Positions 17,238-41,474 of a stretch of DNA of 41,474 nucleotides are shown here, in pieces. The first letter of the stretch is position 1. Every line of letters starts with the position of its first letter. This DNA comes from Anaerolineae bacterium (GTDB taxonomy: Bacteria > Chloroflexota > Anaerolineae > B4-G1 > SLSP01): the NCBI GenBank assembly GCA_034432995.1, contig DAOUAY010000624.1:1-41474 (forward strand). Reading direction: 5' to 3'. Below the pieces are notes generated by a model that was given only the letters and a program-made list of their open reading frames with translations, was not told the DNA's origin and made no database searches. A program made the position numbers and the translations under genes.

Positions 17238-17270
17238 ACACACAAAGCCCCGTGACGGGGCTTTGTGTGT
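17238..17270 (+). terminator. Perfect 14-bp stem-loop after mreB
   Basis: acacacaaagcccc (17238-17251), loop gtgac, then ggggctttgtgtgt (17257-17270). It is followed by gtgg rather than a U-tract. Confidence 0.6.
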
Positions 17271-17447: not shown

Positions 17448-17456
17448 TGGTATAAT
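17448..17456 (+). promoter_or_regulatory. Extended -10 promoter element (TGgTATAAT) for the exporter operon
   Basis: tggtataat at 17448-17456. The nearest -35-like hexamer, ttgcaa (17425-17430), sits at a suboptimal 20-nt spacing. The start codon is at 17523. Confidence 0.5.
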
Positions 17457-17498
17457 GACCGGGTCAACTATGACCCTGGTCAACATTGACCCCGGTCA
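17456..17498. promoter_or_regulatory. Three tandem palindromic operator-like sites, TGACC-N1-2-GGTCA
   Basis: tgaccgggtca (17456-17466), tgaccctggtca (17471-17482) and tgaccccggtca (17487-17498). Centre-to-centre spacing is about 15.5-16 bp, and the first site overlaps the last base of the -10 box. Confidence 0.6.
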
Positions 17499-17522: not shown

Positions 17523-19074
17523 ATGAAGAAAGTTATAACGTGGATCATCATTCTCGCCTTGATCGGCGGAGGGATCGCCGCGTATCTGTGGTGGCGCGGG
17601 GAGCAGGCAACGGCGCAGCAAAGCAGCAATATCCTCCGCACTGAGCAGGTGACGCGCGGTGATCTGAGCATCACGGTCGTCGCCAGTGGCAATGTTGCCG
17701 TCAACAACAAACTCGATCTGCGTTTCGACAGCAGCGGGATCGTCGATCGCGTGTACGTCCAGGCCAACCAGCGGGTACGGGCCGGCGAAGCACTGGCGCA
17801 ACTGGTTACGACGGACCTGGAACGGGCCGTGCAACAGGCGACCATCGCGCTGGAACAGGCCAAACTCAACCGCGATCTCCTCACCAAACCGGTGGCCACC
17901 GAGGATGTGGAATTGGCGCGTCTGAACGTCCAGAGCGCAGCGCAGGCGCTCGAAGTCGCGCGCATCGGCAAGCAGACGGCGCAGGTCGACGCCAACACGA
18001 TGATCGTCCAGGCACAACGCGCCCGCGAAAGCGCCTACAACGATTACAGCAAGCAACAAAACGAAGACGCGCGCCTCAAGTTTGAAAGAGCTGAGGAGCA
18101 GGAGTACATCGCCAGAAAGAATGCCGAGGTCACGCAGGAACAGGCGCAGGCGCAATGGCTGGCAGCTTACAGTCGTTACCAGCAAGCCGCTGAGAGCCTG
18201 CGCAAGCTCGAAGAAGGCCCTACCGAGCAGCAGGTACGCCAGGCCGAGTTGCAAATCGAACAAGCCGCCTTGAACCTGGAACAGGCGCAAGCCCGGTTGG
18301 CCGACGCGCGCCTCACCGCCCCCTTTGCCGGTTTGGTCGCGGCGGTCAACGTGCAAGAGGGCGTAGCGGCTGCACCTGGCGCGGCTGCGTTCACCCTGGT
18401 GGACGATTCGCAGTTCTACGTCGATGTGACGGTCGATGAGATCGACATCGGCAAAGTTAGCGTCGGGCAGAAGGCAGAAGTGACGCTGGATGCCTACCCG
18501 GATCGCGGCATCGACGGCGTCGTCGAGAGCATCGCGCCGGGCGCGCTCAACCTCGGCGGTATCATCTCGTATCGCTTGCGGGTACGGTTATCCCCTCCCC
18601 CCCTCACCTCCCCCCCCATCGGGGGGGACAGAGGGAGGGGCCTCCCCCCCATCGGGGGGGACAGAGGGAGGGGCCTCCCCCCCATCGGGGGGGACAGAGA
18701 GAGGGGCCTCCCCCCCATCGGGGGGGACAGAGGGAGGGGCCTCCCCCCCATCGGGGGGGACAGAGGGGGGGAAAGCAAGGGGGAGCACGATCCGCGACGG
18801 TATGACCGCCAGTATCGTAATCTACACTGCTACGGTCGAGAACGTTCTGCTTGCGCCGAACTGGGCAATACGGGCAGAGCAATCCAGCGGGGAAACCGTC
18901 TTGTACTGCTATGTGCTCAACAACGATGGCGTTCCCGAACGTCGCACGATCACTCGGGGGCGCTATGACGAATCGTTCACCGAGATCCTTTCCGGCCTGC
19001 AAGAAGGCGATACTGTGGCCCTGGTAACCGAAGAGCGCAACCTGCTCGATCTTATGCAGTTCGGTGGCCCTTGA
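17523..19074 (+). pseudogene. HlyD/MacA-type periplasmic adaptor (paralogue 1), frame-broken within an internal 33-bp repeat array
   Basis: The N-terminal part lies in the frame of ORF 17505-18968 ([16 protein letters not shown]..., coiled coil, ...ISYRLRVRL). The homologous C-terminal part (GMTASIVIYTATVENVLLAPNWAIRAEQ...VALVTEERNLLDLMQFGGP) lies in the +1 frame of ORF 18490-19074. Total length is 1552 nt, which is not a multiple of 3. The colinear paralogue at 19115-20524 is intact. Confidence 0.8.
18591..18775. repeat. Intragenic tandem array: 33-bp unit CCCCCCCATCGGGGGGGACAGAGGGAGGGGCCT, 4 full copies plus 1 partial copy
   Basis: C-tracts start at 18610/11, 18644, 18677, 18710 and 18743, an exact 33-nt period. 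Each unit contains a C7-ATC-G7 palindrome. Copy 1 has C8 (18610-18617) and copy 3 carries one G>A change. The array encodes PPIGGDRGRGL in one frame and PPSGGTEGGAS in the other. Confidence 0.9.
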
Positions 19075-26648: not shown

Positions 26649-28166
26649 TCACTCACGCGCCTTTCGTATTCGCAGCGCGACGTAAGGTTTGGCGGGCAGG
26701 TTCACCCGGCACTTACCGGAGAATGTGCCGTCCAACGGTGTGATCGTCATCTCCCAGGCGTCGATCACATCTATAGTATACGCAGCGTCCTCGGGCAAGC
26801 TGATGTCTTTATACGCCGGGCGGTTGATGCCGAAGTAGATCAAGCGATAGGTGTCCGCCGCATCGGTGGATTGGTTCAAATCCCAATATCCGCCGCGCGG
26901 ATCAATCGCGGAGCCGTCTTCCATGATCTGCCGTAGGAAGGCGATACGCGCCGGACTGTCACCGTGGAGCACCCCACCCTTCGACCACCAAAGGATGTCG
27001 TCGGGATGCAGGTAGGTCTCGCCGTGGCCCACGTAGCCGCCACGCGAAAACCCTTCCCAGAAGCGATGCGCCATCTCCTGCGCGGTGATGTTACCCCAGT
27101 TGTGCGGGATGTTGCCTTCGTAGCAACACTCGTCCACCACGACGGGCTTCTTGTACAATTCGCGCCAGTGTCCCACCTGGTTGAGCTCCGAGCGTTGAAT
27201 GCTGCAGTGCGTGACCCAGGGCTTGTTGTGGTCGTAGAAGGTGTGGCAGTTATGGACGGAACGCAAGTGCTGGTACGGGTCGCTCGCCTGCACGATCTGG
27301 AAGAAGCGATCCCAATCCTGCTCGGTCTTGGCCTCCATCAAATCGAACTCGTTCGCCATCGACCACCACACGTTGCGATAGGCCGCCAGCCGCGCGACGA
27401 CGTAACGTAGATAGCGGTCGTCCACTTCGGCGGGCATCGTGCTGTAGCCCCAGCAGTCGTATGGGTGAAAGAGGATGATGTCGGCCTCGATACCCAGGTC
27501 GCGCAGGTTGCCGACGCGCTGTTCCAGGTGGCGGAAGAAAGCCGGATTGAAGCGGGTGAAGTCGAAGCGGTAGCCACCCTCACCCCCAAACGCAGTCTCC
27601 CGGCGTCCCCCTCTCCCAGAGGGAGAGGGGAGTTCCGACTCTCCTCCCTCCAAGGGGAGTTGGAGGGGGGCAAAGGCATGATAGGGCGGCTCGTTCTGAT
27701 TGAAGGTGTAGTGCTTGGGGAACACACACATGCGTAGTTTGTTGAACGGCGCGGTCTTGAGCGTCCCAAGCGTCTGTTCCTCAAGTTCGTCCCCCTGATG
27801 ATTCCACACGTAACACGTCGTGCCGACCGAAAAGTGTGGCGTACCATCCTCATAGGCGAAATGATACGTGTTCCGCACCCGCACCGGCCCGTGATTGCCC
27901 GTCGATGCCGGTATGCAGTCGAACGCGCCCGTCTTGCCATCCAACGCAGCGACGTTGCTGCGCGTCGTGTACGTCCACGCGCCGACCGTGTCCGGCATGA
28001 AGCGAACTTTGTAGACGCCCTCACCATCGTAGAAACCGTCCACGTCGATAACGCGGTGCTTGTACGCAAACCGCGCGCCGAAGGTCACATCAAGGAATGG
28101 ATTACCTTCCGTCGGGCCGTCCAACGTCACCTCGAAAATGTCCCAACGTTCTGCGAATTGCTGCAT
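26649..28166 (-). CDS. DUF5060/DUF4038/DUF5605-type putative glycoside hydrolase with an in-frame repeat-element insertion
   Basis: N-terminal [26 protein letters not shown]...[29 protein letters not shown] is the DUF5060 pattern. The core carries [16 protein letters not shown] and [10 protein letters not shown]. The C-terminal YRLIYFG...[11 protein letters not shown] is DUF5605-like. Confidence 0.8.
27596..27670. repeat. GC-rich double-hairpin element inside a CDS (in frame)
   Basis: cccctctccc-aga-gggagagggg (27608-27630, a perfect 10-bp stem) and ccctccaa-ggggag-ttggaggg (27646-27667, an 8-bp stem). On the minus strand it is translated as ...[29 protein letters not shown]..., a low-complexity segment between the conserved NEPPYHAF and [10 protein letters not shown] blocks. 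Confidence 0.75.
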
Positions 28167-39139: not shown

Positions 39140-41218
39140 CTAGGGAAGATCGAGGACGCCCCAAACACAGATTTTACCGCTGTCGGAGCCGATAAAAGCA
39201 GCGCCAGAGCCATCCAGGGTGAGTGCGGTGATGGCTTCGTTAGTAACGCGCAGGCGATGCATGGTCAGGTTGGCATCGGCAAAAAGCAGGTCTCCCCCCG
39301 TCGTCCCCCCGAGGATAAGGGACTTCTCCCCCCCACTTTCCCCTCCAATGGGGGGGACGTAAGGGGGGGAGATCCACAGCAGCACCGCGAGCGCGCCATC
39401 GAGCGCCGGTCGGCGTTGATGCACCTTCACCCCCTGCGCCAGGTTCCACAGCACCCACTGCCCGGCCTCGTCCACGGATAAGGCGTAGTCGCCCTGCGGC
39501 GCAAAGGCAATGAAGCGCACCGGCGCGCTGTGACCTTCCAGTACGGCGAGTTCAGTGCCCGCGCTCAGATCCCACAGGCGGACTACACCATCGGCAGCGC
39601 CCGACAGCGCGCGCGGCGGCGAGGCATGTGTTGCCAATGCCGTCACCGGACTCTCCGGGGCAGGCAACAGCCACACCAGCCCGCCAGTCTCCGGCTTCAC
39701 TACCCACAGATAGCCGTTCTCCAGTCCCAGCACCAGTTGTGATGCTCCATCGACATAAGCCAGCGTTTGAATACGCGAAAAGGTTGAAACCCGACTGCGC
39801 AACACGCGCGTCCACGACGGGAATGCATACACGTAGAGATCGCGCTCTTGCGCCACAGCGACCTGCCCGGCAGAGCGGGAGAGCGCAAAAACAGCAGGCG
39901 GCAGCCCATTGGCGACCCGCATCACCTGGGCCAACGCCGGGAAACTGTGACGTGATGTCGTCGCGGATTGCATGGCTCGCACCTCGCCGTTGGCGGCATC
40001 CAGGGCTAAAACCGGCTCCGGTGCGGTGTGATAGCAACCGAGCAGCCTGGCGGTCGAGGCAAATGGCTCGCCCGGCGTCGGCACAGGCGTACCGGCGGCA
40101 ACGGGCCAGTAGTAAGGTGTTGGCGTCAACGTCGGCGTGCTGGTGAAGGTGGGCCAGGGCGTGGGTGTTGCGCCAATAGCCAGCGCCGGGCGTACCGTCG
40201 TCGTCAGCGGGGCAAAGACGGACACCGGATAGAACTGCGCGACGCCCCACAAGGCCGCAAGTACCCCCGCCACGGCAAACAGCTTGGCAGGCCAGCCTTC
40301 AAAAATCAACACAAGCCACGTCAGACCGAGCGCCAGCGCCCAGATCCCCCCGATCAGAAAAGTCGGCCCTAGCACATGCAGCAGCGCACGCCACGACGCT
40401 ACGAACAGCCCGACTGTCGCAGCGGAGAAAGACCGGCCAAACCATGCCCGTATATCCGGCGGCTGGAACATATCCAAAATAGCCAGCAGCCCGACCGCGC
40501 CGACAATCAACCCCGAAGTGAGCAATGGAACACTGATGCAGACCCACCGCTTGCGATCAGGCACCAGCAAAGTGGCGACAAGCGCCAGCGCCAACGCCAA
40601 CAGCGGCGCATACCACACCCAGCGCAGCCATGGCGGAGATTCGGGCCACGCGGCCATCGTGTCCGTCTCGGCCTCGGCAAACAGGGCGGCCAGCTCGGCG
40701 ACATAATCCTGCCACCACACCTGCTGTAGCTGCCCCACGGCGGAATGCGCGCCTGGATCGACGGGGACGCAATAGGACGTATCAGCCTCTGCGCAGGATG
40801 GCAGCGCGCGCCACAACCAATCACGCAAGAGTTCTCCTTGCGCCCCGGTCAGGTACTGTTCCACGTCTGGCGCCAGGCGCTCTGGGGGCGGCGCCTCGCC
40901 AAATCCCCAGGCGATCCAGGCCGGGCCCAGGCGCATCACTGCCGCTTCGACATCCACAGTCGCCAACGCCGCATCGAACAGCGCGCGCAGCGTCTCCGGC
41001 TCACGCGACACCCACGGCGACCACACCTCAGCGGGAATCTGGCGCGGCAGATCGACGGCAAGCGCAGTGCTGGCCTGTGCGACAAAATCGCTTTCGCGCA
41101 ACCAGCGCTGATAGAAAACCGGATTCAACAGTGTGTAACGCGCCAGCCACGTCGTCAGCGCAAAGACACTCACCAACGAAGCGAGCAAGCTCAGAACAAG
41201 CGCGATACGCAGTTTCAT
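39140..41218 (-). CDS. Polytopic membrane protein with a C-terminal WD40-like beta-propeller and an in-frame repeat-element insertion
   Basis: Signal peptide or TM at the N-terminus, several TM segments in the middle, and a TPTPWPTFTSTPTLTPTP linker. WD-type blades are present (GVVRLWDLSAGTELAVLEGHSAPVRFIAFAPQGDYALSVDEAGQWVLWNL). There is no SD before the ATG at 41218, so the start is moderately uncertain. Confidence 0.75.
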   Translation of the reverse strand: MKLRIALVLSLLASLVSVFALTTWLARYTLLNPVFYQRWLRESDFVAQASTALAVDLPRQIPAEVWSPWVSREPETLRALFDAALATVDVEAAVMRLGPAWIAWGFGEAPPPERLAPDVEQYLTGAQGELLRDWLWRALPSCAEADTSYCVPVDPGAHSAVGQLQQVWWQDYVAELAALFAEAETDTMAAWPESPPWLRWVWYAPLLALALALVATLLVPDRKRWVCISVPLLTSGLIVGAVGLLAILDMFQPPDIRAWFGRSFSAATVGLFVASWRALLHVLGPTFLIGGIWALALGLTWLVLIFEGWPAKLFAVAGVLAALWGVAQFYPVSVFAPLTTTVRPALAIGATPTPWPTFTSTPTLTPTPYYWPVAAGTPVPTPGEPFASTARLLGCYHTAPEPVLALDAANGEVRAMQSATTSRHSFPALAQVMRVANGLPPAVFALSRSAGQVAVAQERDLYVYAFPSWTRVLRSRVSTFSRIQTLAYVDGASQLVLGLENGYLWVVKPETGGLVWLLPAPESPVTALATHASPPRALSGAADGVVRLWDLSAGTELAVLEGHSAPVRFIAFAPQGDYALSVDEAGQWVLWNLAQGVKVHQRRPALDGALAVLLWISPPYVPPIGGESGGEKSLILGGTTGGDLLFADANLTMHRLRVTNEAITALTLDGSGAAFIGSDSGKICVWGVLDLP
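39291..39371. repeat. G/C-homopolymer-rich element inside a CDS (in frame), related to the 33-bp unit at 18591-18775
   Basis: Tracts are C6, C6, C7-8, C4, G7 and G7. The minus strand reads cccccccattggagggg and encodes PPIGGESGGE, compared with cccccccatcggggggg encoding PPIGGDRGRG in the adaptor gene. The C7...G7 tracts (39328-39356) can pair. Confidence 0.7.
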
Positions 41219-41220
41219 AG

Positions 41221-41248
41221 CGAATTACGAATTACGAATTACGAATTG
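41221..41248. repeat. Heptanucleotide tandem repeat CGAATTA x4
   Basis: Three perfect units plus cgaattg. It begins 3 nt upstream of the ATG (41218) of the minus-strand WD40 gene. Confidence 0.9.
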
Positions 41249-41250
41249 CA

Positions 41251-41285
41251 AGTAAAGAGTGAAGAGTGAAGAGTAAAGAATGGAG
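41251..41285. repeat. Heptanucleotide tandem repeat AGTRAAG x5 (degenerate)
   Basis: agtaaag agtgaag agtgaag agtaaag aatggag. This is a near reverse complement of the CCTTACT array. Confidence 0.85.
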
Positions 41286-41303
41286 GGAAAAGTCTTTGTT
41301 GCA

Positions 41304-41352
41304 CCTTACTCCTTACTCCTTACTCCTTACTCCTTACTCCTTACTCCTTACT
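41304..41352. repeat. Heptanucleotide tandem repeat CCTTACT x7 (perfect)
   Basis: Seven identical contiguous units at 41304-41352. Confidence 0.95.
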
Positions 41353-41474
41353 CGACTTTTGCAGCGCCGAAAAGGGGCGCGGAACCTTAACAACAACAGA
41401 TAATCAGGGCGTGTTCCAGGGAGCGAGCCGCACGCTCCCCTCCCAGCCACCGGAGTGGCCGGGCTATGAGAACC

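Follow-up and report, generated by a model that had tools for sequence, protein, structure and literature searches.

Why should three unrelated genes within a single contig each carry short palindromic runs of G and C that would be read straight through into protein? The question is raised by the DNA of an Anaerolineae bacterium (GenBank assembly GCA_034432995.1, contig DAOUAY010000624.1, positions 1 to 41,474), hereafter the window, meaning the whole stretch of 41,474 nucleotides (nt), which has about 60% G+C and whose proteins, where searched, match those of uncultured Anaerolineae (Chloroflexota). In-frame colonisation of genes by palindromic DNA is mainly known from Rickettsia and is usually linked to reductive intracellular genomes. 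The initial annotation of the window described three unrelated coding sequences with G/C-rich elements that are read through, namely element (a) in a glycoside-hydrolase-like gene, element (b) in a periplasmic adaptor gene and element (c) in the gene of a WD40 membrane protein, and all three are present in the sequence as described. Our analysis suggests that the three segments are probably copies of dispersed, G/C-rich nested-palindrome repeats, which would have been placed into loop-coding positions of genes and would now be translated as loops. Element (a) appears to be of the BoxC/PIT/TMECO type of triplex motif, and (b) and (c) would form a separate family with C7/G7 arms.

Insertions in three host genes

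Insertion status was judged against orthologues and syntenic DNA (loci L002 to L010), and the window was compared with contigs from three independent public metagenome runs (X1, X2 and X3). The three unrelated host genes each hold DNA in excess of their orthologues (27564-27670, 18591-18789 and 39328-39372); the segments are absent from distant orthologues and patchy in close ones, and hence are insertions. About 25 kb of synteny with L002, L005, L006 and L010 revealed no further large G/C-rich indel beyond these three sites. The core C7ATYGGRGGGG occurs at six window sites, all inside (b) and (c), where 0.01 would be expected, and the hairpin CCCCTCTCCC-AGA-GGGAGAGGGG of element (a) at one site against 0.00 expected (100 shuffles).

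The hydrolase site has the following features.

26649-28166, minus strand: host gene 1, glycoside-hydrolase-like protein of 505 residues (Pfam and orthologue alignment A1)
27564-27670, minus strand: element (a), whole extra segment of 107 nt, about 35 residues encoded (X3 strain and orthologue comparison)
27577-27587, no strand assigned: third block of the putative triplex motif, CCCTCACCCCC on the plus strand and GGGGGTGAGGG on the gene strand (DNA alignment A3)
27608-27630, no strand assigned: perfect 10-bp hairpin CCCCTCTCCC-AGA-GGGAGAGGGG, BoxC/triplex-motif type (motif count and genome scan)
27646-27667, no strand assigned: second C/G-block hairpin with a 7-bp stem, CCCTCCA-N8-TGGAGGG (hairpin search and synteny comparison)

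The hydrolase comprises DUF5060, an Apiosidase-like catalytic domain (PF13204) and DUF5605, and according to Pfam the insert lies inside the catalytic domain. The open reading frame (ORF) runs through the element as a low-complexity peptide (29 residues), the gene-strand reading of the 27608-27630 hairpin being PSPSGRG. The element had first been placed at 27596-27670 with two hairpins; both hairpins were recovered, at 27608-27630 and 27646-27667, but the full extra segment is 27564-27670. In the AlphaFold model, insert residues 173-197 form a coil between beta-strands, with a predicted local distance difference test (pLDDT) score below 50.

The site is hypervariable in multiples of three. All distant orthologues, together with the close P0007 (84% identity) and P0012 (82%), have a short loop of 6-8 residues here (YHAFEKxxDG-WDF), relatives at 77-89% identity carry differing motif-derived peptides at the same point (PSPSGRGAGGEG, PSPSGRVAGGE, PSSPGRGDGGE, PSPPTPLPEGEGW), and P0001 has the long form seen in the window. 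At the DNA level L004 holds a compact unit, CTCCCCTCGCCC-TCG-GGGAGAGGGG-CC-GGGGGTGAGGG, and L005 reads CCCCTCACCC-CCGA-CCCCTCTCCC-AGA-GGGTGAGGGG. Compared with these two, the window copy shares the hairpin and adds about 20 nt before the GGGGGTGAGGG block (27588-27607, between third block and hairpin, where relatives have CC alone) and a piece of about 33 nt, which includes the second hairpin (27646-27667) that L004 lacks. Run X2 shows a 27-nt (9-codon) tandem duplication of 27626-27652, overlapping the second hairpin, and run X3 contains a co-occurring strain, about 94% identical, that skips 27564-27670 and has 23 nt instead, which makes it 28 codons (84 nt) shorter overall; the short loop of this strain would be the ancestral state. 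Close relatives and strains of the same community thus show at least four states, with the element missing, present as the compact unit, expanded, or expanded with the 27-nt duplication.

At the WD40 site two features need to be distinguished.

39140-41218, minus strand: host gene 3, membrane protein of 692 residues with a C-terminal WD40 beta-propeller (Pfam, homologues, AlphaFold model)
39328-39372, minus strand: element (c), insert of 45 nt or 15 codons (45-column gap against L009)

On the gene strand, element (c) is TCT-C7-TTACGT-C7-ATT-GGAGGGG-AAAGT-G7, and the WD40 ORF reads through it as SPPYVPPIGGESGGEKS. The closest orthologue, L009 (91% identity), is without exactly these 45 nt; the insert, more or less decayed, is found in five of about 15 close orthologues and is absent from all those below 60% identity. 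The interval proposed at first, 39291-39371, contained a real insert but reached too far, as the C6 runs at 39294-39310 belong to the native gene (LGGTTGGD) and are kept in all orthologues. Insert residues 619-631, with pLDDT below 50, lie between strands E610-616 and E634-639 of the AlphaFold model. Mapping onto predicted structures, as the initial annotation had recommended, places both modelled inserts (hydrolase and WD40) in low-confidence coil loops.

Other WD40 orthologues differ at further places: P0132 and P0133 carry an unrelated 19-residue insert, REKALLEESVLLEGELVLS, in another WD40 loop (alignment A4, columns 553-571), several have a 4-residue insert (QVAA or PIVA), and in P0126 the N-terminus is spuriously extended by a repeated IRHSPFA.

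At the adaptor site the following features were assigned.

17523-19074, plus strand: host gene 2, periplasmic adaptor of the HlyD/efflux membrane-fusion family (homologue names, precomputed Pfam, synteny with L002 and L005)
18591-18789, plus strand: element (b), extra segment of 199 nt in the window, 198 nt with C7 (DNA alignment A2 against L002 and L005)
18592-18640, plus strand: putative founding four-block unit, CCCCTCCC(CCCC)-TCACCT-C8-ATC-G7-ACAGA-GGGAGGGG (architecture and spacers as in (c) and in metagenome copies)
18610-18617, plus strand: C8 run with one extra base, giving an apparent frameshift (X1-X3 contigs)
18611-18771, plus strand: tandem array with a 33-nt (11-codon) unit, C7-ATC-G7-ACAGA-GGGAGGGG-CCT, 4.9 copies, 97% matches (tandem-repeat search)

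In the adaptor, element (b) takes the place of a turn of four residues within a predicted beta-strand region. Every array unit holds C7-ATC-G7, the first C run being C8 and those of the other four units C7, and in the window the ORF shifts frame after the array. Every covering contig of X1, X2 and X3 has one letter fewer at 18610 (C7); with C7 the segment comes to 66 codons (198 nt), which leaves an intact ORF of 516 residues, and the array reads SPPSGGTEGGA five times, the frame that the array of orthologue P0147 also uses. The peptide PPIGGDRGRGL x5 reported at first was a frame error caused by the extra C. That the adaptor is a pseudogene was considered and rejected in view of the C7 of X1-X3, the intact 516-residue ORF and the P0147 frame. 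Because the extra C would be a homopolymer error or a variant, the adaptor is most likely open and all three hosts, rather than two of them as had been thought, would keep an open frame. Apparent frameshifts elsewhere in the window assembly may be similar homopolymer errors.

Adaptor orthologues at or below 60% identity have the 4-residue turn only (DTRA or ETGD), and nearly all those at 62-86% identity have at least one unit-like peptide (PPSVPPDGGDERG). The number of units is five in the window, six in P0147, two in P0148 and P0153, and three to four of different sequence in P0157; the arrays have expanded independently in several lineages. The copy number given for the window is that of the window assembly, the short-read contigs of X1-X3 breaking inside the array.

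Two families of dispersed repeats

Elements (b) and (c) are homologous beyond the core, both consisting of a C run, a spacer, a C7-ATY-G7 hairpin, a spacer and a G run, with similar spacers, i.e., a four-block palindrome C7-N5/6-C7-ATY-G7-N5/6-G7 of about 42-45 nt. Their assignment to one family, proposed with the first description, is borne out by the shared DNA, the four blocks and the spacers, but the shared peptide PPIGG was a product of the frame error. The metagenome core scan returned at least about 30 near-identical copies with the full architecture (consensus CCCCCCC-TCTTT-CCCCCCC-ATT-GGGGGGG-ATGAAA-GGGGGGG, 42 nt, some copies having the (b)-type right flank ACAGAGGGAGGGG), and several other X1-X3 contigs end in or carry a C7-type element. 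Copies in unrelated genes elsewhere do exist, and as multi-copy families.

Because ORF-length heuristics alone overcall coding sequence in high-GC genomes, Pfam checks and random-position controls were added. Among the matches listed, 25 of the 32 C7-family copies (78%) are well inside ORFs of 150 residues or more; for random positions in these loci the share is 80%, so the family sits in genuine genes at the background rate. At least 12 hosts have Pfam annotations, and seven of them have domains on both sides of the element, or extending across it, in a single frame: GH2 beta-galactosidase (two loci), A2M (alpha-2-macroglobulin), a Ser/Thr kinase with LuxR, CheB (in the linker), Proton_antipo_M (a NuoL/M-like antiporter subunit) and HGD-D. 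Hosts with SNF2, NACHT, VWA or methyltransferase domains have them on one side only, and a GH13 amylase in a relative of the window organism is an additional host. Across hosts the element DNA is read in five different frames (e.g., PPLSSPPMGGKEGG, PPFIPPNGGERGG, PPFHPPQWGGKRG), and by our own reading GGG makes up most of the Gly codons in the elements, against a background of 21% in the window; what is conserved is therefore the DNA and not the protein. Judged in like manner from the sequences, both the C7 consensus and copy (c) lack stop codons in five of six frames.

In L146, L156, L168, L232 and others, two spacer arrangements were observed, TCTTT...ATGAAA and TTTCAT...AAAGAG, which are mutual reverse complements with the same ATT loop, and therefore the central hairpin loop is inverted relative to its flanks in one of the two forms. 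It is tempting to speculate that this inversion may reflect template switching within the palindrome.

The relatives of element (a) are more widespread. The published motif has the form CCCTCNCCC-N3-6-GGGNGAGGG-N3-GGGNGAGGG (Holder et al. 2015, PMC4666352); BoxC or potential intrastrand triplex (PIT) elements are described by Hoyne et al. 2000, as cited in that paper, which counts 3610 copies of TMECO across 262 proteobacterial genomes, describes the 23 copies of E. coli K-12 as "always located intergenically" and ties the motif to small local rearrangements. In element (a) the blocks are CCCTCTCCC, TCT, GGGAGAGGG and then GGGTGAGGG, with a second loop of about 20 nt in the window against 3 nt in the published form; L004 and most listed matches have a short second loop of 2-5 nt (CC/CT, with 10-nt stems), close but not identical to the strict pattern. 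By these blocks element (a) would be a BoxC/PIT/TMECO-type triplex motif, a type known from Proteobacteria and cyanobacteria, in an unusual position within a gene. Repeats of this kind had been thought uncharacterised for such genomes; this no longer holds for (a), whose type is known, and stands for the family of (b) and (c), which we did not find described. The searchable literature likewise yielded no description of such elements inside Chloroflexota genes, the raw motif strings matched solely eukaryotic papers in full text, and an Rfam scan of the window gave no family at its gathering score.

The pattern CCCCTCTCCC-N3-9-GGGAGAGGGG occurs in at least 120 stretches (one genome per species), and the matches listed come from Chloroflexota, Alpha-, Beta- and Gammaproteobacteria, Planctomycetota, Acidobacteriota, cyanobacteria and others. 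Most of those listed carry a third block flanking the hairpin on one side, either CCCTCACCCC-NN-hairpin or hairpin-CY-GGGGGTGAGGG, the block CCCTCACCCC having been absent from the query pattern, and several of the listed loci hold two to four BoxC-type copies. A 45-nt consensus query matched 5066 of 5426 complete E. coli genomes, at a median of 4 places. The BoxC hairpin core is stop-free in all frames. BoxC-type copies deep in ORFs are depleted (53% versus 81% for random positions), and further in-frame cases are a methionyl-tRNA synthetase (MetRS) in L017 and a thiamine pyrophosphate enzyme in L084. By a relaxed four-block pattern no C7-family copy was found in 824 kb of BoxC-bearing loci of other phyla, nor in L002-L010, and therefore the two families do not simply co-occur.

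Two further observations concern the BoxC type. At L089:444-802 (Anaerolineales bacterium H38_463) four or more BoxC-type units, each about 42 nt long (CCCTCACCCC-NN-CCCCTCTCCC-loop-GGGAGAGGGG), form a head-to-tail array, and therefore this family also makes tandem arrays in Anaerolineales. Genes for DUF559 (a Vsr-like endonuclease) lie between or adjoin BoxC-type motifs at L017:1777-4515 (minus strand), L033:5593-6027 and L101:2080-2457, three loci retrieved by the motif pattern alone. In the MetRS ORF of L017, the stretch from the anticodon-binding to the tRNA-binding domain includes, all in one frame, a motif, DUF559 and a further motif in inverted orientation, and the inverted motif pairs around DUF559 resemble the termini of a small selfish cassette. 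In E. coli K-12 the DUF559 gene ycjD (L251, NC_000913.3 1351040-1351760) has at its 3' end a motif-like hairpin, CCCTCTCCC-TGAAAGA-GCGAGGGGG; a full TMECO follows about 180 nt downstream, before fabI, and is itself preceded by a duplicated ycjD 3'-end fragment. BoxC is reported to have been first described at fabI (envM). Among the papers listed that mention DUF559 (15 of 25), none looked relevant to these motifs by title or abstract. Neither the window nor the C7-family loci turned up a DUF559 gene, and therefore the DUF559 lead concerns at most the BoxC type.

Origin of the elements

It seems reasonable to argue that the units, laid out as C-rich blocks, a loop and G-rich blocks and able on paper to form hairpins, intrastrand triplexes or G-quadruplexes, were placed as copies at loop-coding sites of ordinary genes, where they would be read as Pro/Gly-rich, probably disordered surface loops. 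As the units are multiples of three (42/45 nt, and 33 nt for the array unit) and mostly stop-free, they would not shift the frame and would rarely truncate the protein, and could thus persist in tolerant loops; the frame would be kept without any special mechanism, and the selection for in-frame insertion invoked initially is not needed. Their hairpin and homopolymer structure would make each site an indel hot spot, subject to slippage, tandem amplification and partial deletion, of which purifying selection would let pass only changes in multiples of three. Slippage would then drive the variation of the sites, and the elements would be selfish or neutral passengers. We regard it as possible, though doubtful, that the C7/G7 four-block element is a genuinely mobile, coding-compatible repeat (a multiple of three and nearly stop-free) that colonises ORFs of free-living Chloroflexota at little or no penalty, with the connected possibility that BoxC-type motifs are the inverted termini or remnants of a small selfish DUF559 (Vsr-like) cassette. 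A mobile C7/G7 element would constitute a second, independent case of protein-coding palindromes beside Rickettsia, and would seed enzymes and transporters with new Pro/Gly loops and with tandem peptide arrays able to expand.

Several observations weigh against placement as dispersed copies. Among the metagenome copies, kinship to the window organism is shown only for L160 and L186, and the 41-kb window itself holds three sites only and no intergenic copy. No mobilising enzyme and no terminal signature was found, and a target-site duplication longer than 1 nt was absent from the one exact empty/filled pair, 30 flanks showing palindrome extension only (T...A); the inverted termini TCTC7...G7AGA belong to an element that is a palindrome itself. 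Mobility is thus suggested by dispersal only. In the adaptor the insertion is old, as orthologues down to about 62% identity have it too, but the window copy still has perfect hairpins, and therefore simple neutral decay does not fit and recent re-amplification, gene conversion or selection on structure would be needed. Single-strand folding energies are unexceptional compared with same-composition shuffles (z from -0.55 to -1.8), a comparison that does not discriminate, since shuffled C and G runs fold as well.

Selection on structure leads to a first alternative, namely that the segments are functional nucleic-acid elements, a hairpin, triplex or G-quadruplex kept for an effect at the DNA or mRNA level, be it the pausing of translation or transcription between structural units, mRNA protection or on/off frameshifting as in contingency tracts. 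The perfect C7/G7 hairpins at the old adaptor site would suit such a role, as would the position of some copies in inter-domain linkers (CheB and the kinase-LuxR protein). Runs of C7 and G7 are also similar to homopolymer tracts in phase-variable genes, and in just such a tract the window differs by one C from three other assemblies. All three of these independent assemblies, however, agree on the in-frame C7, the hosts (enzymes, transporters, signalling proteins) are unrelated and without a common theme, and decayed copies persist at orthologous sites, e.g., in L005 and L010. As far as the account in PMC4666352 goes, the earlier study cited there found neither promoter nor terminator activity for the BoxC type, and single-stranded motif DNA forms a triplex in vitro, in vivo formation not having been shown in the published tests. 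We therefore consider a retained function unlikely.

A second alternative dispenses with copying altogether: each loop would have grown in place as its C and G runs slipped during replication, with selection on the protein favouring flexible Pro/Gly linkers, and their likeness would be low-complexity convergence. Slippage is evident at the sites (unit numbers of the 33-nt array, the 27-nt duplication, C7/C8), and the sites are variable loops in every orthologue. Convergence would nevertheless have to arrive, in over 25 genes unrelated to one another, at a single 42-45-nt sequence with the spacers TCTTT/ATGAAA, TTTCAT/AAAGAG and ACAGAGGGAGGGG and the ATT/ATC loop, and five reading frames leave no common peptide to select. 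Moreover, the unqueried third BoxC-type block, CCCTCACCCC, flanks most listed matches across phyla, and the exact 45-nt gap in L009 comes close to a precisely bounded presence/absence. Growth in place is in our view quite improbable.

A sequencing or assembly artefact (poly-G/poly-C chimeras or collapsed repeats) can hardly be credited and is largely refuted already: one base of the window C8 run is wrong or a variant, obvious poly-C/poly-G artefacts occur among the metagenome core matches (L133, L140, L217, L236, L247) and the copy number of the 33-nt array lacks short-read contig support, but (a) and (c) recur exactly in the independent X1 and X2 assemblies and are therefore no assembly artefacts, an identical hydrolase gene lies on a contig of a separate NCBI metagenome-assembled genome, and many orthologues from other samples have the same or related in-frame inserts.

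Relation to known repeats and significance

If the three segments are indeed copies of dispersed repeats, the question arises as to which known systems they resemble. Like BoxC/PIT/TMECO, element (a) and its orthologous copies have a C-stem CCCTCNCCC, a loop, a G-stem GGGNGAGGG, a loop and a second G-stem GGGNGAGGG, the L004 unit being CCCCTCGCCC-TCG-GGGAGAGGGG-CC-GGGGGTGAGGG; the type is multi-copy, spread across many taxa and accompanied by small local indels at the hydrolase site, and (b) and (c) follow the same logic of C-block, G-block and G-block. Unlike the intergenic BoxC of E. coli, element (a) lies in frame inside a catalytic domain and has extra blocks added, and unlike the published TMECO range (262 proteobacterial genomes), hairpin and third block together also occur in Chloroflexota, Planctomycetota, Acidobacteriota, cyanobacteria and others. 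The C7 family departs from BoxC in its arm sequences and its four blocks. Structurally, both families group with the G/C-rich triplex motifs described by Holder et al.

The Rickettsia palindromic elements (RPEs) are in-frame palindromic repeats found in many unrelated genes, translated and compatible with the fold of the host protein (Ogata et al. 2000, 2002, as summarised in PMC10969869). The analogy drawn with them by the initial annotation is apt as a description of behaviour, palindromic repeats lying in frame in the three window hosts and in no fewer than 12 C7-family hosts with Pfam annotation. RPEs are about 100-150 bp long, A/T-rich, restricted to Rickettsia and conserved as a peptide in one frame, whereas the elements described here measure 42-45 nt, consist of G/C blocks, are read in five frames without a conserved peptide and reside in a free-living host of Anaerolineae type. 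The C7 elements behave like RPEs and are no members of that family.

Likeness to REP/BIME with RAYT and to MITEs (Correia, ERIC, Nezha) is limited to being short, dispersed, hairpin-forming and non-autonomous; MITEs occasionally yield in-frame fusions (PMC10969869). REPs are extragenic by definition, whereas the location here is intragenic, and the GTAG/CGTC tag of REPs is absent from the copies of (a) type and C7 type. Unlike in MITEs, no terminal inverted repeats with target-site duplication could be recognised and no insertion sequence was found; nor was a RAYT or transposase noticed in the window (where some ORFs were checked) or in the examined loci. The SDR of Nostoc and Anabaena, reportedly described by Elhai et al. 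in 2008, are said to be mobile-looking repeats of about 21-27 nt, between and within genes and often nested; by this description, the elements studied here differ from them in sequence and host phylum.

If our interpretation is true, in-frame palindromic colonisation would be more general than thought, with a G/C-block element that is far shorter and found in free-living Anaerolineae, and would routinely supply genes with new surface loops, linkers and peptide arrays that can expand. To our knowledge, the origin and function of BoxC/triplex-motif repeats have been open since the 1990s; these repeats would gain a new context within genes, as presumably translated hot spots of indels in multiples of three. 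On the practical side, the elements break short-read assemblies, homopolymer frameshift errors within them mimic pseudogenes, and they account for many of the odd P/G-rich low-complexity stretches of predicted proteins.

Other repeats near the host genes

The intergenic spacers next to two of the hosts contain repeats of other kinds. Upstream of the adaptor gene lie a perfect 16-bp hairpin, ACACACAAAGCCCCGT/ACGGGGCTTTGTGTGT, at 17238-17270 and a 16-nt tandem repeat, AATGACCCCGGTCAAC, in 2.9 copies at 17454-17498. Directly upstream of the WD40 start, heptamer tandem arrays occupy 41221-41353 (CGAATTA x3.9, AGTAAAG-like x4.1, CCTTACT x7.1), and syntenic loci have short repeats of another heptamer-like kind (CACGTAT...) in the intergenic spacer next to it.

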